Below, piece by piece: positions 1 to 9,674 of a DNA stretch of 9,674 nt. The notes beneath the pieces were generated by a model, which worked only from the letters and a program-made list of their open reading frames with translations, was not told where the DNA came from and searched no databases. Origin of the DNA: a virus. Its lineage: Duplodnaviria; Heunggongvirae; Uroviricota; Caudoviricetes. Numbering within the stretch: position 1 is the stretch's first letter; every line of letters begins with the position of its first letter. A program made the translations under genes and the position numbers. The stretch lies in IMG/VR virus record IMGVR_UViG_2548876938_000003, positions 1-9,674 of that record, one strand, 5' to 3'.

Positions 1-287
1 CTGATGACATACATGCCGTAAATCATGCCGGTGCCATCCAGCAACGGCCACGCCCGGCCTTCATCTGCCATCAGCCTGAGCGTGGTCATCGTCAGCTTTC
101 CGCCGGTCAGTTCGGGATAAAGCACACCGGCAAGCGTCATGTTTTCCTCGCCAACACCGAGAAACTGGTAGGCATCCCGTTTACCGATACGGGAATTTGA
201 CGGCCAGCGATAATCTGATTCACGCTGCATGGTCTGGTGTGGCAGCGTCTGGCGCATAAAAACAAACATACCTAACGCGAGCATCAT
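1..287 (-). CDS. U: Tail protein gpU (P2 U-like), first 95 codons; 3' end lies beyond the window start
   Basis: Minus-strand tandem ATG ATG at 287-282, preceded by a strong SD (AAGGAGGTGA) that overlaps the gpT stop codon. Translation reads MMLALGMFVFMRQTLPHQTMQRESDYRWPSNSRIGK... for the ~25 codons translated by hand, matching my recollection of P2 gpU; the remainder to the window edge is assumed open. Absent from the ORF track because there is no in-window stop. Confidence 0.85.
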   Translation of the reverse strand, partial: MMLALGMFVFMRQTLPHQTMQRESDYRWPSNSRIGKRDAYQFLGVGEENMTLAGVLYPELTGGKLTMTTLRLMADEGRAWPLLDGTGMIYGMYVI

Positions 288-301
288 TTTTAGTCACCTC
301 C

Positions 302-2749
302 TTAACCGTCATGCATCATGCTGGCACGGGCGCGCGCACGTTTATCCCGCTCGTATTTTTCGAGCGCATCCTGTAACTGGCGGTCGAGCTGTGTCCCCGG
401 CGCAGTACCACCCGTCAGGCTGATGTGATATTCGTTTTTACTCTGGTCTACATAAGAGCGGCCAGCAGGTGCAGTGACCGGCTGATAAGCCTGATAACCT
501 GCATAAGAGCTGGTCGCCGGAATATAACCACCGCTGCCATACGTGGCGGCTTGAGTTCTGGCGGCGGTCTGGTCAAGTGTGTCTGACTCTTTGTTGATAA
601 CACCGAGTTTTTCCAGTACCCAGTCAATACCACTGCGCAGTTTGTTGAACGCATTAAGCGGCAGCATCAGCGCGTCAGCCAGTGCCTGCCCGAACATGAC
701 GCCCGTGTCACGGCAACGGTTCAGGGTGTCCTGGGTGGCTTTGACCGGGGCAATCAGGTTTTTAAACCACTGCCACGCGGCCTGTAACTTTTCGCCCAGC
801 CAGTCAAACACCGGCTTCAGTGGCGTGAACAGTTCCCCCACCGGCGCAAATGCCGCTTTCAGCCCTTCAACCACACCGCCAAAGAATGCGCTGACAGGCT
901 CCCAGTATTTACGGATAAGCAACGCCCCGGCGACAATGGCGGCCACCACGGCCACAACCGGCCAGCTAATCGCCCCGATGGCCGTCATAACAGCACTGCT
1001 AACCGTCGTGAAGATTGCCCCCATTGCGCCTGCTGCCGCGATAATGGCATTGATGCCGGTGATAACCGGCCAGGCTACAAGACCAATGGCACCGATGATG
1101 CCAATAAGCGCCAGCGCGCCACCGACAATGAGGCCGATGGTTGACGCCAGTGATTTGTTTTTCTGGATCCAGCCGTCGAGTTTTAACACATACTTTGTGG
1201 CCGTCTGCGTGAGCTTACGCAGTGCGCCTTCCTGCTGGTCAAACAGGTCAGTCCCCACCGCCTCATAAGCGGACTGAAACTCCTTAAAGTCACCGCCGAG
1301 GTTATCCTGCATGATTTTAACCAGCTCTTCCGTTTTACCGTCCGAGGCTTTCAGCGTGGCGGTCAGCGTATCCAGTTTTCCGCTTGCTGCCGCTGCCAGT
1401 AAAACGTTCGCTGATTTCAGGGCTTCCTCACCAAAAATGGTTTTAAGGTATTCCCCCTTCTGAGACGTTCCCAGCTTATGCTTATCAAAGCTGGCCTGAA
1501 TCTCTTTCAGAATGGTGAACAACGGACGCATATTTCCCTTTTTGTCCGAGGTTTTAACGCCAAGCTCTTTGAGTGCATCCCATGCTTTTCCAGTCGGTGC
1601 CTGTAATCGGGTGACAACGGCACTGCTACCCGTACCCGCCATTGACCCCCTGATGTTATTGTCATGCAGCACACCGGTCATGGCCGCTGCCTGCTCAAGA
1701 CTTACACCTGCCGTCCTCGCAACCGGGCCGAGGTAAGTCAGTGCATCACTGAGTCCCTGAAAATCAGCCGCCGACTTATTCATCGTTGCCGACAACACGT
1801 CGCCCACATGGCTGACATCATCATTTGACAGTTGAAAGGATGCCTTAGTCCCCAGCAACAATTGCGCGTTTTCTTCCATCGACCGCTGGTTTGCCAGTGC
1901 CATATTCAGTGTGACCGGCGTTGCTGCCTGAATAGCCGCAGCATCTCCACCCGCTTTCGCAATGATAATCTGTGCACCGGCTGCATCATCTGCCGAGGCT
2001 GCGGTATTGTCGCCGAGCTGGCGCGCCTGCTTGCGGAGTGCGGTCATTTCGGCGGAGTCTTTTGCCACTCCTAGCACGGCCTGCAATTCTGAGTTTTTCT
2101 GCGCAAACTCATAACCGGGCATCAGCAGCTTAACACCGGCCATCGTTCCCGCAGCAGCAATCCCCACACCGGCAGCGCCCACTGAGGCCATATTTCCTGC
2201 CAGTTCCTTTCCGGCCTGATAACGCTGTTTTACTGCGTTAAGTTTTGCCTGTTGTGCACTGACACGCGCCAGTGCGTCGCGCTGACGGTTAAGCTGTGCG
2301 GTGGTTTCACTGATACGGTTTTTCAGCCCCTGCTCATCATGTGCAAGATTGCGGGTATTAATTCCCACAGCGGCCAGTTCCCGCTGCTGGCGTTTAACGG
2401 AATCCGTCAGGCGGTTATATTTCGCCTGTAAGTCCTCCGCCGCACGCTTTGCGGATTCCAGCACTTTCGCCTGAGCACGGGTCGGACGTTCGGTGTTTTT
2501 AAACTGTGTGGCAAGGGCTTCGGCTTCCTGCCGAGCCTTTTCAAGTGCATGACCAGTCACGGCGAGCTGTGCACTGGTCTTGCGAAATCCCTCAATACGG
2601 GATGCCTGACCGTTCAGCTCGCGCAGTGATTTTTGTGTTTCCCGGATATCCCCCGACAGCGACTTACTCGCTGTGCGGATGGATTTAAACGGGCGGGATG
2701 CCTGGTCAACAGCCCTGAGCAATACCTGTAATTTTACATTGTTACTCAT
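302..2749 (-). CDS. T: Tail tape measure protein gpT (815 aa)
   Basis: Complete 815-aa ORF. The N-terminal half is rich in A/Q/R/L/E (coiled-coil character). A long central Gly/Ala/Ile-rich hydrophobic block (LASTIGLIVGGALALIGIIGAIGLVAWPVITGINAIIAAAGAMGAIF...) is typical of tape measure proteins. It lies immediately downstream of the E/E' frameshift chaperone pair; the ATG at 2749-2747 sits 3 nt downstream of the E' stop (2742-2744 lies inside T codons 2-3). Length equals the P2 gpT length I recall. Confidence 0.93.
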   Translation of the reverse strand: MSNNVKLQVLLRAVDQASRPFKSIRTASKSLSGDIRETQKSLRELNGQASRIEGFRKTSAQLAVTGHALEKARQEAEALATQFKNTERPTRAQAKVLESAKRAAEDLQAKYNRLTDSVKRQQRELAAVGINTRNLAHDEQGLKNRISETTAQLNRQRDALARVSAQQAKLNAVKQRYQAGKELAGNMASVGAAGVGIAAAGTMAGVKLLMPGYEFAQKNSELQAVLGVAKDSAEMTALRKQARQLGDNTAASADDAAGAQIIIAKAGGDAAAIQAATPVTLNMALANQRSMEENAQLLLGTKASFQLSNDDVSHVGDVLSATMNKSAADFQGLSDALTYLGPVARTAGVSLEQAAAMTGVLHDNNIRGSMAGTGSSAVVTRLQAPTGKAWDALKELGVKTSDKKGNMRPLFTILKEIQASFDKHKLGTSQKGEYLKTIFGEEALKSANVLLAAAASGKLDTLTATLKASDGKTEELVKIMQDNLGGDFKEFQSAYEAVGTDLFDQQEGALRKLTQTATKYVLKLDGWIQKNKSLASTIGLIVGGALALIGIIGAIGLVAWPVITGINAIIAAAGAMGAIFTTVSSAVMTAIGAISWPVVAVVAAIVAGALLIRKYWEPVSAFFGGVVEGLKAAFAPVGELFTPLKPVFDWLGEKLQAAWQWFKNLIAPVKATQDTLNRCRDTGVMFGQALADALMLPLNAFNKLRSGIDWVLEKLGVINKESDTLDQTAARTQAATYGSGGYIPATSSYAGYQAYQPVTAPAGRSYVDQSKNEYHISLTGGTAPGTQLDRQLQDALEKYERDKRARARASMMHDG

Positions 2750-3169
2750 TCGTGTTTCCGCTTCGCCGGAGCGCCTTTTCGCGCCATGTGATGAGTTCGG
2801 TCAGGCTCATGGGATACAGTTCTGATGGCGGCCAGTGAAATATCACTGCCACATCCGCCATCAGGTCATCGACCGAGAGATTTTTCGGGAACGTCACTGC
2901 ACCGAGTTCGGCGACAAAAAACCGACCACCTTACCGGCCAGCGCCACAAGGTCAGGCAGTTCCAGCGCGGCGACTTCCTGCTCGGTCAGCATCGGTGCCG
3001 TCATGCGCGGCAGCACTTTAATCAGTGCATCGACTTCGGAGTTTGCAACCGCAGCCAGACTGACACCGCGCAGCGTCCCGGCGTTAGGTTTCATCAGCGT
3101 GACCTGTTCGATAACCTGCTCACCACGTTTGACCGGATTGTCCAGGGTAATGACATTTTCTTTGTTCAT
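2742..3169 (-). CDS. E+E': Tail assembly chaperone gpE+E' (142 aa), made by programmed -1 ribosomal frameshift at 2915-2921
   Basis: Hand translation of the -1 frame after the slippery site gives VAELGAVTFPKNLSVDDLMADVAVIFHWPPSELYPMSLTELITWREKALRRSGNTNE, then TAA at 2744-2742, which overlaps T codons 2-3 (ATGAGTAAC). 85 + 57 = 142 aa, the length I recall for P2 E+E'. Confidence 0.8.
2894..3169 (-). CDS. E: Tail assembly chaperone gpE (91 aa, zero-frame product)
   Basis: ORF MNKENVITLDNPVKRGEQVIEQ...KVVGFLSPNSVQ, ATG at 3169-3167, TGA at 2896-2894. Position between tail tube and tape measure genes. Contains the slippery heptamer 7 codons before its stop. Confidence 0.9.
   Translation of the reverse strand: MNKENVITLDNPVKRGEQVIEQVTLMKPNAGTLRGVSLAAVANSEVDALIKVLPRMTAPMLTEQEVAALELPDLVALAGKVVGFLSPNSVQ
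2915..2921 (-). promoter_or_regulatory. -1 programmed frameshift slippery heptamer T_TTT_TTG (mRNA sense)
   Basis: Plus strand reads caaaaaa at 2915-2921; the reverse complement is TTTTTTG in X_XXY_YYZ register with the E frame (GGT TTT TTG). This is the conserved tail-chaperone frameshift of P2-like and lambda-like (G/GT) phages. Confidence 0.8.
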
Positions 3170-3197
3170 GGTTTTCTCACTTCTGAATCGGGGTTAA

Positions 3198-3218
3198 CCG
3201 GTCAGCCTGGCTGACCGG
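3198..3218 (-). other. Perfect 9-bp GC-rich stem-loop (ccggtcagc-ctg-gctgaccgg) in the FII-E spacer
   Basis: Inverted repeat read directly from the sequence, 8 nt downstream of the FII stop and about 28 nt upstream of the E start codon. No U-tract follows on the transcribed strand, so it is not a canonical intrinsic terminator. Confidence 0.5.
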
Positions 3219-3225
3219 ATGAAAA

Positions 3226-3744
3226 TCACAGGCCGATATTGCGGCGGTGTTGCTCCAGCCGGTCGACGCCGTTCACCTTCTCAATCATGTTGATGGTGTC
3301 GATTTCGACCAGCTCCTTACCGTCCATCGTCAGCCGGAAATAGGTGCAGACCACGGAGATTTTCGACTCGGTGTCTTCTCCCTGTTTCCCCTCGCCGGTG
3401 TCGATTTCTTTCTGACGTCCACGCATGACCACCTCGACGGCCACCGTTTCGCCGGTATCGTCGCGCTGGTAAGAGCCTGCAAAACGAATCGGCACGGCAT
3501 CCACACCGGTTGCGGCGTAAAGCTCCCAGATAACCGAATCCGGGAAGCCCCCGAGCGACCACTCCATTGACAGCGCATCGTCATCAAGGCCGAGGTCTAC
3601 CGGTGCGCTGCCGTTCATCCCCGCACCGCGATAGTTTTCGAGCTTACGGGTCAGTTTTGGCAGCGTGACGGACTTTGCAACGCCCTGATAGCTGTAGCCG
3701 TTCAGAAAGACGTTCATTAACTTGAGTTTGCGCGGCATTGCCAT
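3226..3744 (-). CDS. FII: Tail tube protein gpFII (172 aa)
   Basis: Complete ORF MAMPRKLKLMNVFLNGYSYQGVAKSV...; ATG at 3744-3742 preceded by SD AAGGAG, which overlaps the FI stop. Length and sequence match the P2 tail tube protein as I recall it. Confidence 0.93.
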   Translation of the reverse strand: MAMPRKLKLMNVFLNGYSYQGVAKSVTLPKLTRKLENYRGAGMNGSAPVDLGLDDDALSMEWSLGGFPDSVIWELYAATGVDAVPIRFAGSYQRDDTGETVAVEVVMRGRQKEIDTGEGKQGEDTESKISVVCTYFRLTMDGKELVEIDTINMIEKVNGVDRLEQHRRNIGL

Positions 3745-3756
3745 CGGTCAGGCTCC

Positions 3757-4566
3757 TTAATTGCTGTTAACCGAAGTGACCAGATTTGCCAGGTATTTAT
3801 CGGTAATACGCTGGCGCAGGGTCAGGTTTTCGAGAGGAGGCACCGGGGTATAGTCGTAGTCGATATACAGTTTTCCGGCCTTGAGGGTTTCCGCATCGTT
3901 GGATTCTTCGCTGAACCAGCAGGTCGCATCCACGATATAGCCGTTTGTTTTCAGCTCACGGAATTTGGCATTGATGCCGTCAACGATGTCGCGAATCAGC
4001 GTTGCGGTGATGGGCTTGTCCACTGCCCACATGTGCGCCTCAGCCATCGTGTCGGCCAGCACCTGCGCGGTGCGGGTGTAGTTTTCAAAGAGGAACAGCG
4101 GGTCATCGGAGCAGGTACGGTTACCCCAGAAGCGGAAACCGTCGCGGCGAATCAGCGTAGTGACGCCTGACTCGTTAAGCAGGTCAGCATCGGTGCCGGA
4201 CTCCTGCAAATCCCAGAAGACGGATGCGCTGATGCCGGTAACACCGTTCACCCCGACATTGGACAGCGTTTTATGCCAGCCCTGCTCCTGGTCGATTTTA
4301 GCGCGCAGACCCAGCGCACGGGCGGTGGCATACGCGGTGGCGGTGGTACTGGTGACCGTATCCCATGCGAGGAAATCCGGCCAGATGACCATCAGCTCAC
4401 GCTGGCTGAAATTCTGACGGTAGGCTTTCACCTCGGAAATGGTTTTACAGCCCCATGCGCTGATATACCCGAAAGCACGCAGCTTCTGACAGACTGATGC
4501 CAGTGCAACAGCCACCTCTTTGGTATCCAGTCCCGGCACGCCGAGAATACGCGGTTTAACACCGGT
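3757..4566 (-). pseudogene. FI: Tail sheath protein gpFI, 5'-truncated remnant (C-terminal ~269 codons only)
   Basis: Sheath-like sequence starts abruptly at ...[26 protein letters not shown]... and runs to ...[12 protein letters not shown] with TAA at 3759-3757. The ORF-track start at 4614 is a GTG, and its first 15 residues ([15 protein letters not shown]) are the gpV coding sequence read out of frame. P2 sheath is about 396 aa as I recall, so roughly 125-130 N-terminal codons are missing. Confidence 0.85.
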
Positions 4567-4834
4567 TATCGCCGGAATAAATCCCCGGCAGAACGAACGC
4601 CGTGTCGAGTTCACCGCCCACGGCCAGAATCAGCACCTGTTCCCCCACGGAAGGTGCCCACCATGTGCGCGAACGTCCGGCGCGATGGGTCAGCCACTGA
4701 AGCCAGTCGGTGCACATGCCGCCGGTCTGCACACGGCAGCGACCGGCGTTAAGGTCGGTTTCGACGATAATGCCGGTGCGGATCATGTTGCGCAGTGCGC
4801 GCGCGAGTTCCTGAATATTTGCGAGAGTGTTCAT
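4556..4834 (-). pseudogene. V: Baseplate spike/assembly protein gpV, N-terminal 89 codons followed by an out-of-frame RC-stop
   Basis: [90 protein letters not shown] matches the gpV N-terminus. The frame then reads R-C-stop (TAA at 4558-4556), which lies inside the sheath-derived sequence. Full-length gpV is about 211 aa as I recall. Confidence 0.85.
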
Positions 4835-4845
4835 AACGGGAAGGA

Positions 4846-4869
4846 TGCCGCCGGGTCATACCGGCGGCA
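4846..4869 (-). other. 9-bp stem / 6-nt loop hairpin (tgccgccgg-gtcata-ccggcggca) between the S stop and V start
   Basis: Inverted repeat read directly from the sequence, 12 nt upstream of the V ATG (4834). Not followed by a U-run. Sits where the late promoter PV and V translation-initiation signals are expected. Confidence 0.4.
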
Positions 4870-4900
4870 ATGTGACGATGAGGTGTCGGGAATGGCACAA

Positions 4901-5323
4901 CTAACGGTCGAGGTGAGCCAGGATAATCTCTTCAATCATCTGCACATCCTCACCGGTAAAGCCGAGCAGAGGACGCGCCGGATAATCAATTTTCTTACCG
5001 TCTTTCCGGTTTTCTTCCGACAGACCGAACTGATGCACACTGGCGATTTTCGGCGACTTCCCGCCGTAAAATTCCATTGATGCCTGCTCCGGGCTGGCGC
5101 GGATATGCAAAAAACGACTGGTAATAAGTTTCGCAAACATTTTTCGCTTAACGCGACCGGTCTTTTTTCTGGCGCTCTGCTGCTGGCGTGGTGCGTAGGG
5201 TGTGCCGTCCGGGGCTTTCTGTGCCATCACCCGGCGCTGCTGACTCTGCCGCAGACGTTTCGCCAGTTCGGCGCTCAGTCGCCGACGCCCTGACGGTGAC
5301 AGCGATTCAATAAGTCCGGCCAG
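4901..5323 (-). pseudogene. S: gpS-like tail completion / virion morphogenesis protein, 5'-truncated and lacking its native start
   Basis: The frame reads ...RLAGLIESLSPSGRRRLSAELAKRLRQSQQRRVMAQKAPDGTPYAPRQQQSARKKTGRVKRKMFAKLITSRFLHIRASPEQASMEFYGGKSPKIASVHQFGLSEENRKDGKKIDYPARPLLGFTGEDVQMIEEIILAHLDR with stop at 4903-4901. Assignment is from motif memory (HQFGL, YPARPLLGF) and position immediately before V. Protein-like sequence in this frame continues upstream into the 3' end of the M ORF. The only in-frame starts are GTG at 5230-5228 and ATG at 5227-5225 (the ORF-track 109-aa call); there is a stop at 5371-5369. Confidence 0.6.
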
Positions 5324-5913
5324 TCGAGCTGTGTCGCACGTTGCAGGTGAGCCAGCGCACCGGCGGCATCACCAGCGTCACGCAGAAACAGACCGGTGAT
5401 TTTGTGCAGCTTTGCGCGCACTTCATCAGGCATGTCTGCCGTGGCGGTCAGTGCAAGGGTCTCCGTCAGCAGGCGGGTATCCACAGACTCACCGGCAGCG
5501 TGGGCGCGCATGGCCGCGAGCGCCACCTCCTCGGTGAACATGTACGGCGGGGTGCGGCGGTGTTTACCCGGCATGGTCAGACCGTACTTCAGGGCATAAC
5601 GGGCAATCTCCAGCGCACCGGCAATATCGCCGGTATCCAGACGCCACAGCATGACCGTCATCAGAATGTCATCCTGTGCACCTTTGCCCTGCTCCAGCAC
5701 GCCGTTCACCCACGGCAACCAGAACGGCAGCAGTTCGCGTTTTTTCGCGGCCTTCAGCTCTTTTGAATAAATCGCTTTCAGTGTGCGCTGGTCTGCGGCC
5801 AGCTTGACCAGCATCTGCTCATAGACAGTTGCATGTCGCAGCGGGGCGGCGTCCCGCTGCGCGGTCATCGCTGCCGAGACCCGCATCATGTGGCGCTGTG
5901 CGGGACTCGTCAT
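5275..5913 (-). CDS. M: Terminase small (endonuclease) subunit gpM, apparently 3'-truncated (212 codons; aberrant C-terminus WPDLLNRCHRQGVGD)
   Basis: MTSPAQRHMMRVSAAMTAQRDAAPLRHATVYEQ... with ATG at 5913-5911, 3 nt downstream of the N stop, and SD GGGAG. After ...HLQRATQLD the frame reads through sequence that is coherent in the S frame, and stops at 5277-5275. P2 gpM is about 247 aa as I recall. Confidence 0.8.
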   Translation of the reverse strand: MTSPAQRHMMRVSAAMTAQRDAAPLRHATVYEQMLVKLAADQRTLKAIYSKELKAAKKRELLPFWLPWVNGVLEQGKGAQDDILMTVMLWRLDTGDIAGALEIARYALKYGLTMPGKHRRTPPYMFTEEVALAAMRAHAAGESVDTRLLTETLALTATADMPDEVRAKLHKITGLFLRDAGDAAGALAHLQRATQLDWPDLLNRCHRQGVGD

Positions 5914-5916
5914 CGG

Positions 5917-6990
5917 TTACGCTCCCGGCTCTGCGGTCACTTTAGTCGGTGTGGAGAAGTCACCGACCTTAATTTTTTCCACCAGGCAACCGGCGGCGTA
6001 GTCTTCCACCACGTAATCAATGTTCATTGACTCGTAGTTCTCCACGCGGTCGAGTTTCGGGTTTTCCTCAATCACGCGGCGATGGCTGTCATCCATGTAG
6101 TAGATGGACAGGTTTTCCAGCTTCGTGATGAGCATCGCATCCGCCGGGAAGTACGGGACGCGTACCGCTGGCAGGTTGCCGATGCGTTTCTGGCTGATGA
6201 TGACGTCAGCGGCCAGCATTTCGCTGTTGTCCTGCTCCTTGTTGACGATGGGGAAATACTTGTCCGCCAGTAGCTGACGCCCCACAATCACCACAAGGTC
6301 AGGGTCTTCCTGATACCACGGCTCAATCAGGTTGTTGGTCGCATCCATCACCAGTGCGTCAAGGCTGGCATAATCACCGCCCTTACCCACGCGGATGACC
6401 TCAGAGGTCGTGTGCCCTTCCTCGTCAGTGACCTTGCTCATCACGCGCGCCGGGGCTTCATTGCGGTATTTCTGCAGCCAGCCGACCGCCACATCCTGCA
6501 ACATCGGATTACTGCTGCGGTCAGAGGTTTCGGCACGCCTCACGCCGTTAAAACCGGCCATGATGAAATCAAGGGACTGGCGTTTGATAATGGCGTTACG
6601 GACACGGAGCTGGAAATCCTGATAACGCGCCCACAGGTCCAGCGTTTTGTAGCGGATATAAAAATCGAAGTTAATCTGGTCGCATTCGTACTTGTTTGAC
6701 GCCAGCTTCGAGAAGTCCTTTGGCTGACGCTCGGTGCCACCGGCGGTGTCGGTGGTGCTGGCGATGGAGCCGGTGACACCGATGCCAATTTTTTCCCCTT
6801 TCATTTCGCTGACCGGCACAATGTTGATGCGGGTCAGAAAGTCAGAGGACTCCTGCATGGTGTTCATCAGGGTCTGGGTGACCGACGGTTCAACGGTGAA
6901 TTTTTTCGACACATCACCGGCGTCGATGCCGTTCAGTTCGGCAACACGGGACAGGTAGGCATTAAATTTAAAGCGGGTTTCCTGGCGCAT
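5917..6990 (-). CDS. N: Major capsid protein precursor gpN (357 aa)
   Basis: Complete ORF MRQETRFKFNAYLSRVAELNGIDAGDVSKKFTVEPSV... preceded by AGGA SD; TAA at 5919-5917. Canonical position between scaffold O and terminase subunit M. Length equals P2 gpN as recalled. Confidence 0.93.
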   Translation of the reverse strand: MRQETRFKFNAYLSRVAELNGIDAGDVSKKFTVEPSVTQTLMNTMQESSDFLTRINIVPVSEMKGEKIGIGVTGSIASTTDTAGGTERQPKDFSKLASNKYECDQINFDFYIRYKTLDLWARYQDFQLRVRNAIIKRQSLDFIMAGFNGVRRAETSDRSSNPMLQDVAVGWLQKYRNEAPARVMSKVTDEEGHTTSEVIRVGKGGDYASLDALVMDATNNLIEPWYQEDPDLVVIVGRQLLADKYFPIVNKEQDNSEMLAADVIISQKRIGNLPAVRVPYFPADAMLITKLENLSIYYMDDSHRRVIEENPKLDRVENYESMNIDYVVEDYAAGCLVEKIKVGDFSTPTKVTAEPGA

Positions 6991-7048
6991 AGTTTTTCCT
7001 GAAATTAAGGGTTAATCGTGAAGGTTTTCCCGGACTGACTGACGCCGG

Positions 7049-7903
7049 TCAGCAGTTCGTCATCAGGGCGTCACCGCCACCGCCGGTGGCTTTGCTGCGG
7101 CGCTGCTGGGTCAGACTTTCGGTGTGGTCGAGACTGTTTTTCAGGCGGGTGAATGCCTGACTGGTTTCATCCGCCCTGTCAGTCACATCCTGCTTAAGTG
7201 CCGAAAAGGCGGTTTCCATCTCAGCAAGGCGCTGCTCAGTGGCGCTCAGTTTTTCCTGCACATGCTCAGCGACAGCGGTCACCGCTTCATGCACGTCATT
7301 CAGACGGGCGTCATCGCTGGCCTGTTTGCGGCCAAAAATGGATTTCACCTTTTCGGTCAGGGCGGTGAACACGGTTTCAGGCAGGTCTTCAAATTCCAGC
7401 TCAACAGGCGTTGCCACTGAAATCAGGTTTTCAGGGCTTAATTTGAAGCGGTTCAGAGGGTTGTGTTTTGCCGTGCGGCAGAATTCCAGGTATTCCGTGC
7501 CGAGGCTTGCCGGGTCATCGGTGACGGCCAGCCCCACCAGATAACACTTGCCGGTGTTGGCAAAGTTCGGCTGAATTTCCATTGAGGTATAGACCTTCTG
7601 CGCGGCCTTGTTCATCGCGATAAGGTCATCGGTCGGGGTGATTTTCGCAAACAGCGCCCATTTGCCTTTCAGCGCCGAATCGTCGTCAATCTTTTCGGCC
7701 TTCAGTTCGGCCACATCGCCATAACGTTTAAAAATACCGTCAGGCAGGATGCCGCGCAGATGTTCCAGGTTAATGCGGCAACCATAGACACGCGGGTCAA
7801 AGGTTTCGGCCATTTCCTGAATATCCTGCGCACTGATGACACGCCCGTCACAGGTGTCACCCTCAACGCCGATACGAAAGAATTTTGAGACTTTTTTTGC
7901 CAT
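7049..7903 (-). CDS. O: Capsid scaffolding protein gpO (284 aa)
   Basis: MAKKVSKFFRIGVEGDTCDGRVISAQDIQEMAETFDPRVYG... with coiled-coil-like C-terminal half. True start taken as the ATG at 7903-7901 (SD AGGA 6 nt upstream), not the ORF-track upstream ATG at 7969. Divergent from P, as in P2. Confidence 0.9.
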   Translation of the reverse strand: MAKKVSKFFRIGVEGDTCDGRVISAQDIQEMAETFDPRVYGCRINLEHLRGILPDGIFKRYGDVAELKAEKIDDDSALKGKWALFAKITPTDDLIAMNKAAQKVYTSMEIQPNFANTGKCYLVGLAVTDDPASLGTEYLEFCRTAKHNPLNRFKLSPENLISVATPVELEFEDLPETVFTALTEKVKSIFGRKQASDDARLNDVHEAVTAVAEHVQEKLSATEQRLAEMETAFSALKQDVTDRADETSQAFTRLKNSLDHTESLTQQRRSKATGGGGDALMTNC

Positions 7904-8076
7904 TGTCAGGAGTCCTGAATAGTGATTAGAGGAGTCACATGTCGGCATCAGTTTCCCGACGATGCGCATCCTCCGCCATCAGTCCCGGATGGCTTATCAC
8001 TGACACAACAGCACCTTAGCGAATCGCGGGGCGCGACTCAGTAGCCTTGCCGTGTATTCATCACGGCGAGGTATTC
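7904..8076. promoter_or_regulatory. Divergent intergenic region between O and P; presumed late promoters PO and PP plus 5' leaders
   Basis: 173-bp non-coding spacer between divergently oriented first genes of two late operons. Contains the near-palindrome tcagga-g-tcctga (7906-7918) overlapping the O SD, and a GAGG SD for P at 8067-8070. I could not find an exact TGT-N12-ACA Ogr/Delta-type activator motif, so promoter placement is inferred from gene arrangement only. Confidence 0.45.
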
Positions 8077-9674
8077 ATGACCATCACCACAGACACCACT
8101 CTTTTACACGACCCGCGTCGTCAGGCGGCGCTGCTGTACTGGCAGGGATTTTCCGTGCCGCAGATTGCCGCCATGTTGCAGATGAAACGCCCGACGGTGC
8201 AGAGCTGGAAACAGCGCGACGGCTGGGACAGCGTTGCCCCCATCAGCCGTGTCGAAATGAGTCTGGAAGCGCGGCTGACCCAGCTCATCATCAAACCGCA
8301 GAAAACCGGCGGTGACTTCAAGGAAATTGACCTGCTCGGACGCCAGATTGAACGACTGGCACGGGTCAACCGTTACAGTCAGACCGGCAACGAGGCAGAC
8401 CTTAATCCGAACGTCGCTAACCGCAACAAAGGCGGGCGTCGCAAACCGAAAAAGAATTTTTTCAGTGACGGGGCCATCGAAAAGCTGGAGCAGATTTTCT
8501 TTGAGCAGTCTTTCGAGTATCAGTTGCACTGGTATCGCGCCGGGCTTGAGCACCGCATCCGCGATATCCTGAAATCCCGCCAGATTGGCGCGACGTTTTA
8601 TTTTTCCCGCGAGGCGCTGCTGCGCGCCCTGAAAACCGGTCATAACCAGATTTTTCTGTCGGCCAGTAAAACGCAGGCGTATGTGTTCCGCGAATACATC
8701 ATCGCCTTTGCCCGGCTGGTTGACGTTGACCTGACCGGTGACCCGATTGTCCTGGGCAATAACGGCGCAAAACTGATTTTTCTCGGCACCAACTCCAACA
8801 CCGCGCAGAGCCATAACGGCGACCTGTACGTCGATGAGATTTTCTGGATCCCGAATTTTCAGGTACTGCGTAAGGTGGCATCAGGTATGGCCTCACAGAG
8901 TCACCTGCGATCGACCTATTTCTCCACTCCGTCCACGCTGGCGCACGACGCCTACCCGTTCTGGTCGGGTGAACTGTTCAACCGGGGACGCGCCAGCGCC
9001 GCCGAACGCGTGGAAATCGACGTCAGTCATAACGCCCTTGCCGGTGGGCTTCTCTGTGCAGACGGCCAGTGGCGGCAGATTGTCACCATTGAGGACGCCC
9101 TGAAAGGTGGCTGCACGCTGTTCGACATTGAACAGCTCAAACGCGAAAACAGCGCCGACGATTTTAAAAACCTGTTCATGTGTGAATTTGTTGACGACAA
9201 GGCGTCAGTGTTCCCGTTCGAGGAGCTGCAACGCTGCATGGTCGACACGCTGGAAGAATGGGAAGACTATGCACCCTTTGCCGCCAATCCGTTCGGCTCA
9301 CGTCCGGTATGGATTGGTTACGACCCGTCACACCGTGGCGACAGCGCCGGATGCGTGGTGCTGGCACCGCCGGTGGTGGCCGGTGGCAAATTCAGAATAC
9401 TTGAGCGTCACCAGTGGAAAGGCATGGACTTTGCCACTCAGGCTGAATCCATCCGCAAACTCACCGAAAAATATAACGTCGAATACATCGGTATTGATGC
9501 CACCGGCCTCGGTGTCGGCGTGTTCCAGCTCGTGCGCTCGTTCTATCCCGCCGCGCGCGACATCCGCTACACGCCGGAAATGAAAACCGCAATGGTGCTC
9601 AAGGCAAAAGACGTTATCCGCCGTGGCTGTCTGGAATATGACGTCAGCGCCACCGACATCACCAGCTCGTTTAT
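8077..9674 (+). CDS. P: Terminase large (ATPase/nuclease) subunit gpP, first 532 codons; 3' end beyond the window
   Basis: ATG at 8077 with GAGG SD; hand translation MTITTDTTLLHDPRRQAALLYWQGFSVPQIAAMLQMKRPTVQSWKQRDGW... is open to the window end. Walker-B-like LYVDEIFWIP and a nuclease-domain-like VWIGYDPSHRGDSAGCVVLA are present. Absent from the ORF track because there is no in-window stop. Confidence 0.93.
   Translation, partial: MTITTDTTLLHDPRRQAALLYWQGFSVPQIAAMLQMKRPTVQSWKQRDGWDSVAPISRVEMSLEARLTQLIIKPQKTGGDFKEIDLLGRQIERLARVNRYSQTGNEADLNPNVANRNKGGRRKPKKNFFSDGAIEKLEQIFFEQSFEYQLHWYRAGLEHRIRDILKSRQIGATFYFSREALLRALKTGHNQIFLSASKTQAYVFREYIIAFARLVDVDLTGDPIVLGNNGAKLIFLGTNSNTAQSHNGDLYVDEIFWIPNFQVLRKVASGMASQSHLRSTYFSTPSTLAHDAYPFWSGELFNRGRASAAERVEIDVSHNALAGGLLCADGQWRQIVTIEDALKGGCTLFDIEQLKRENSADDFKNLFMCEFVDDKASVFPFEELQRCMVDTLEEWEDYAPFAANPFGSRPVWIGYDPSHRGDSAGCVVLAPPVVAGGKFRILERHQWKGMDFATQAESIRKLTEKYNVEYIGIDATGLGVGVFQLVRSFYPAARDIRYTPEMKTAMVLKAKDVIRRGCLEYDVSATDITSSF

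Follow-up and report, generated by a model that had tools for sequence, protein, structure and literature searches.

The DNA analysed here, which we call the window, comprises contig AIAO01000078.1 of assembly GCA_000446325.2 over its full length of 9,674 bp and carries part of a P2-like prophage in an Escherichia coli genome. Our results make it very probable that this is a fragment of a defective Peduovirus prophage which has undergone two internal deletions between short repeats, one joining the baseplate spike gene V to the tail sheath gene FI and the other joining the terminase small-subunit gene M to the tail completion gene S.

By megablast, phage P2 and the P2-like prophages of ~1,800 complete E. 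coli genomes match the window at ~98% identity. When aligned by blastn with P2 (NC_001895) and with the intact prophage of CFS3246 (NZ_CP026929.2), the window resolved into three colinear blocks of 94–98% identity whose ends overlap by 3–9 bp. Window positions 1–4571 correspond to P2 22598–18028 in reverse orientation and run from the truncated U to the 3′ part of FI; positions 4563–5326 hold the 5′ part of V (window 4564–4834, P2 10578–10308), the S–V spacer and the 3′ part of S (window 4899–5326, P2 9369–8942); and positions 5321–9674, matching P2 5749–1396 in reverse orientation, hold the 5′ part of M followed by N, O and the truncated P. Compared with P2 the window lacks positions ~5750–8947 and ~10579–18030, as well as orf30 between S and V, which is missing from its closest intact relatives too. 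The open reading frame map displays P2-type late genes in series on the minus strand and the terminase large-subunit gene on the plus strand, exiting the right end, and the Pfam families of all called genes (Terminase, GPO, P2 capsid, small terminase, Phage_tail_S, Phage_base_V, Phage_sheath_1/1C, tube, TAC_7, GpE, tape measure and GpU) agree with those of their P2 counterparts. Gene order and orientation are those of P2 (P, O N M ... S V ... FI FII E E′ T U), and this synteny, together with the high identity, places the window in Peduovirus, an assignment that rests on the late genes since both contig ends fall inside phage genes, U and P.

The closest intact relatives that we compared are the E. 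coli P2-like prophages of CFS3246, GCA_019146435.1 and GCA_023814945.2, which are 97.7–98.4% identical to the window across all three blocks and retain full-length M, L to S, V to G and FI. The latter two adjoin yegQ/ogrK and encode a T protein identical to that of the window, and the CFS3246 prophage keeps all 8,356 bp that the window lacks. The segment comprising the V remnant and the S–V spacer (window 4563–4900) matches many E. coli prophages at 100% identity, compared with ~97–98% to the same genomes for the flanking blocks, a contrast that probably reflects the mosaicism typical of P2-like phages.

A reading of the sequence without database searches had proposed a V–FI deletion junction at about 4561–4567 with the two genes in different frames, and the base-level comparison located the crossover to within a few bases of this, at 4563–4568 on the minus strand, within the microhomology TAACCG that is common to V codons 89–91 and FI codons 127–129. 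The V parent reads ...TCCGGCGATAACCGCGCG, the FI parent ...GAGTCGGTAACCGGTGTT and the window ...TCCGGCGATAACCGGTGTT, with a single copy of TAACCG retained and no filler DNA. Chance is excluded for this junction because 98% identity extends over kilobases on either side. The crossover joins V codons 1–90 to FI codons 128–396, with the frames 1 nt apart, so that the last V codon kept is 90 and not 89 as had been proposed. The resulting V pseudogene (4556–4834, minus strand) encodes residues 1–90 of P2 V (90/90 identical), which include its N-terminal domain PF04717 only, and ends in ...GDN followed by Arg-Cys from the out-of-frame FI and the stop codon TAA at 4556–4558. The FI pseudogene (3757–4566, minus strand) retains 269 of the 396 codons (68%), a slight refinement of the two-thirds given in the sequence-only reading; the limits 128–396 come from codon arithmetic, and local alignment gives 126–396 (268/271), including two junction-derived residues. 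This remnant holds the Phage_sheath_1 and sheath_1C domains only and lacks the N-terminal third of the protein, the additional N-terminal domain PF22671 found in the full-length FI of relatives, the start codon, the ribosome-binding site and the promoter PF. A V–FI fusion protein was considered and rejected, because the frames are 1 nt apart, no slippery sequence is present and the V remnant stops at its TAA.

The gap opened by this junction, from the V 3′ end through the FI 5′ end, amounts to 7,457 bp in P2 coordinates, 5,158 bp relative to CFS3246 and 6,690 bp relative to GCA_019146435.1. According to the P2 feature table it contains V codons 91–211, W, J, I, H, G and FI codons 1–127, which agrees with the prediction that the rest of V, the baseplate genes W/J/I and the fibre genes H and G were missing. 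The V-operon terminator (P2 15639–15666) and fun(Z) also fall in the deleted interval, as do the PF activator site (P2 17555–17583) and transcription start (17626–17628), so the proposed loss of PF holds. The proposed loss of the Z/fun locus stands in P2 coordinates, where its position is deleted, with the qualification that in the closest intact relatives the interval between G and FI carries inverted tail-fibre-assembly cassettes instead of P2's Z/fun. Oppositely oriented cassettes of this type were seen in prophages with an identical tape-measure protein (L006/L007, 5000–7800), and two related Logan contigs whose tape-measure protein is also identical (L008, 670–1287, and L009, 55–441) have a resolvase-family, invertase-like gene immediately upstream of FI and no Z/fun; the gene in L008 was called in two pieces.

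The deletion had also been offered as the reason why no accessory or defence cargo is seen, and this explains the matter only in part. P2-like phages have their main defence hotspot near cos, in the interval from A to Q (PMC9122126), and Z/fun is a further such locus, described in work that also reports defective P2-like elements (PMC13586616). Although the Z/fun position was removed from the window, the A–Q hotspot would lie outside the contig, and the deletion by itself therefore does not account for the lack of cargo.

The second junction, which was not part of the sequence-only reading, lies at 5321–5323 on the minus strand (context 5275–5330) and links codon 197 of M out of frame with codon 11 of S at the microhomology CTG. 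Here the M parent reads ...CAGCTCGACTGTCAGG, the S parent ...GACCGGCTGACCGGACT and the window ...CAGCTCGACTGGCCGGACT; the 3 bp of microhomology barely exceed the chance expectation. The M pseudogene (5275–5913, minus strand) encodes terminase small-subunit codons 1–197 followed by 15 out-of-frame codons from S, and the S pseudogene (4901–5323, minus strand) retains codons 11–150 of the tail completion protein and has no start codon. The 3,198 bp lost contain the M 3′ end, L, X, Y (holin), K (endolysin), lysA, lysB, lysC, R and the S 5′ end, and this junction thus strips the whole lysis cassette. Together the two deletions total 8,356 bp, exactly the difference between the 18,030-bp CFS3246 span and the window.

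Apart from the four genes cut by the deletions, all genes lying wholly on the contig are full length compared with P2 and free of frameshifts and premature stops. On the minus strand these are the major capsid protein N (5917–6990, 357 aa), the capsid scaffold O (7049–7903, 284 aa), the tail tube FII (3226–3744, 172 aa, identical to P2), the tail assembly chaperones E (91 aa) and E+E′ (2742–3169, with the conserved frameshift site present) and the tape measure protein T (302–2749, 815 aa). Two more genes run uninterrupted off the contig ends, namely U (1–287, minus strand, codons 1–95 of 159) and the terminase large subunit P (8077–9674, plus strand, codons 1–532 of 590).

The S–V intergenic region (4835–4900, minus strand) comprises 66 bp, contains no orf30-type cargo and is the presumed region of the Ogr-dependent PV promoter. 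The intact CFS3246 prophage has the identical spacer sequence, and therefore whatever acts as PV in functional relatives is still present. P2 late promoters depend on Ogr. A consensus scan of 3600–5400 found no sigma-70-like promoter, a result that is uninformative for Ogr-dependent promoters, and the S–V spacer has no exact match to the activator-site consensus TGT-N12-ACA. A terminator scan of the same 3600–5400 region returned one weak terminator-like hairpin, inside the V remnant, which is below the shuffled expectation of 2.2. We also observed a perfect 8-bp GC-rich hairpin at 4847–4868 on the minus strand (GCCGCCGG-TATGAC-CCGGCGGC), ~12 nt upstream of the V start and lacking a T-run; it is identical in CFS3246 and is a candidate 5′ leader structure or weak O-operon terminator.

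Three other accounts of the window have to be weighed against two deletions in a prophage. One is that the V–FI join is a chimera, made when an assembler linked reads that came from a single intact prophage or from two prophages. In its favour, a short contig (9,674 bp) whose ends fall within U and P is typical of repeat-limited assemblies, and several P2-like elements in one E. coli genome are common: the window matched a median of 2 places per genome and up to 8, although its two deletions by themselves divide the match to any one intact prophage. Against this, Logan contig SRR21142975_280 (4,845 bp), which derives from a different sequencing project and assembly pipeline and represents either the same strain re-sequenced or another isolate, is 100% identical to window 4189–9033 and runs unbroken across both junctions. 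The joins moreover share no more than 6 bp and 3 bp, far less than any assembler overlap or k-mer, and had the sample also contained an identical intact copy, a de Bruijn assembler would have met a branch at the junction and ended the contig there. For these reasons we regard an assembly chimera as very unlikely. Both contigs stop within phage genes, the window in U and P and the Logan contig in the FI remnant (4189) and P (9033), which suggests related sequence elsewhere in those genomes, such as a second P2-like element, or IS insertions. Another account, that the arrangement is natural to some P2-like lineage and involves no deletion, has in its favour that open reading frames extend across the junction and nothing else. 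Opposed to it are the stop of the V remnant after 90 of 211 codons, the FI remnant's loss of 127 codons, start and promoter, and the 1-nt offset between the two frames; in addition, all close relatives carry the full set of intervening genes, with V and FI at their full lengths of 211 and 396 aa and 5–7 kb apart. The exact junction-1 31-mer had 0 matches in 100,044 species-representative genomes, IMG/VR and JGI metagenomes. We regard this account as refuted by these comparisons.

The third account is that the element has been domesticated under selection, its retained genes serving a host or anti-phage function or acting as a recombination reservoir for incoming P2-like phages. It draws on the integrity of the genes outside the four cut by the deletions and on two other E. 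coli prophages that have lost an overlapping central block. The decayed P2-like prophage of ETEC1701 (NZ_CP122938.1) consists in this region of a V remnant, an H fragment and FI from codon ~159, with a truncated M joined to a truncated K and an inversion; it resembles the window in the proximity of its V and sheath remnants and in its truncated M. Isolate 38M23CPO005 (NZ_CM151354.1, L010, 6709–7429) has one large deletion that joins M, cut at codon ~119, directly to a truncated FII. Both, like the window, have lost the central late region and retained O–N and E–T–U, and in fact keep Q–P–O–N and E–T–U–D–ogr. Their deletions are independent of those in the window, as the junctions and partners differ. 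In ETEC1701 (~24278–24285) M breaks after ...GACTGTCA, 3–4 nt beyond the break in the window (5321–5326), and is joined to a lysozyme fragment and not to S; these near-matching breakpoints may be a coincidence or a weak deletion hotspot, and are a further point that can be counted for domestication. A recent deletion, however, would equally leave intact reading frames, and since M, S, V and FI are all truncated, either out of frame or startless, no capsid-packaging or tail-like machine is possible. The element was found in just two assemblies and in no complete E. coli genome, with no sign of spread or long retention, and among the 1,502 E. coli records examined over a 600-bp window spanning the M–L boundary 1,490 are intact and only 12 truncated. 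Domestication of this element is accordingly improbable in our judgement, and we hold slightly less likely still the broader proposal that central-block loss is a recurrent, selected route of domestication, of which a deletion-prone site around M codon 198 would be part and in which the intact head and distal-tail genes would be kept for a function such as interference or recombination with incoming P2/P4-type elements. An R-type tailocin was rejected on account of the truncated sheath, the missing baseplate, fibre and lysis genes and the presence of the head genes N, O and P; a satellite was likewise considered and rejected.

The deletion of the V–FI region appears to be specific to one strain. 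The junction is absent from complete RefSeq E. coli genomes: of 1,681 records matching window 4300–4900, one alone reaches a query coverage of at least 80%, split over two pieces whose breakpoints are not those of the window. Exact-protein look-ups found the truncated V, M and FI products only on the source contig and on one Logan contig, and the other 'partial' V, M and sheath proteins of the same clusters proved to be contig-end fragments and not deletion products.

Returning to the reading that we favour, a defective prophage with two deletions, each would have arisen by illegitimate recombination between very short direct repeats, TAACCG for V/FI and CTG for M/S. Base-level comparison with the parents (P2, L002 and L006) shows both junctions to be seamless, with one repeat copy kept, and neither contains IS, transposon or recombinase-site sequence or filler. 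A RecA-independent slippage or a microhomology-mediated joining is the mechanism that these features suggest. The deletions would be fairly recent or neutral, because all other contig genes are still full length, or point decay may simply not have had the time to act.

The functional consequences can be judged from established P2 biology and the P2 record. With both the V-operon terminator and PF lost, the FI remnant and FII–E–T–U would be reached only by transcripts that start at PV, or upstream of it, and read through. The complete late-gene set essential to a functional prophage (M, L, X, Y, K, R, S, V, W, J, I, H, G and FI) is not present on the contig, and the element should now be unable to lyse its host, package DNA or build a tail. 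Lysis would fail because Y, K and lysABC are gone, cos cleavage and packaging because M is truncated, head completion because L is lost, and the sheath and tail completion because FI, R, S and X are affected. With W, J, I, H and G absent from the locus, no baseplate or fibres would be expected from this element, and the earlier claim that it can make neither these nor a complete sheath holds for this contig. A second, intact P2-like prophage elsewhere in the genome might supply the missing functions, and the breaks of the Logan contig in FI and P hint at a further related sequence in that sample. In a host that carries a prophage, selection would be expected to favour changes such as the loss of the lysis cassette.

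The P2 remnant ogrK–yegZ in E. coli K-12 is a cryptic prophage. Compared with it the window is far less eroded, having eight genes full length and two more uninterrupted to the contig ends. Decay has followed the same course in the K-12 remnant and in the defective elements described previously (PMC13586616), with internal deletions inactivating lysis and morphogenesis genes. What we describe is therefore ordinary prophage decay, a strain-specific instance of a known phenomenon and not a new kind of element; its significance beyond correct annotation is small and it opens no long-standing question. Annotation of the contig should mark V, FI, M and S as pseudogenes and describe the element as a defective prophage. 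The window nevertheless shows, cleanly and at base resolution, how two short-homology deletions have inactivated a prophage, one of them taking out the whole lysis cassette, and together with the two independent E. coli examples it marks the loss of the central late region as a repeated route of decay of P2-like prophages.
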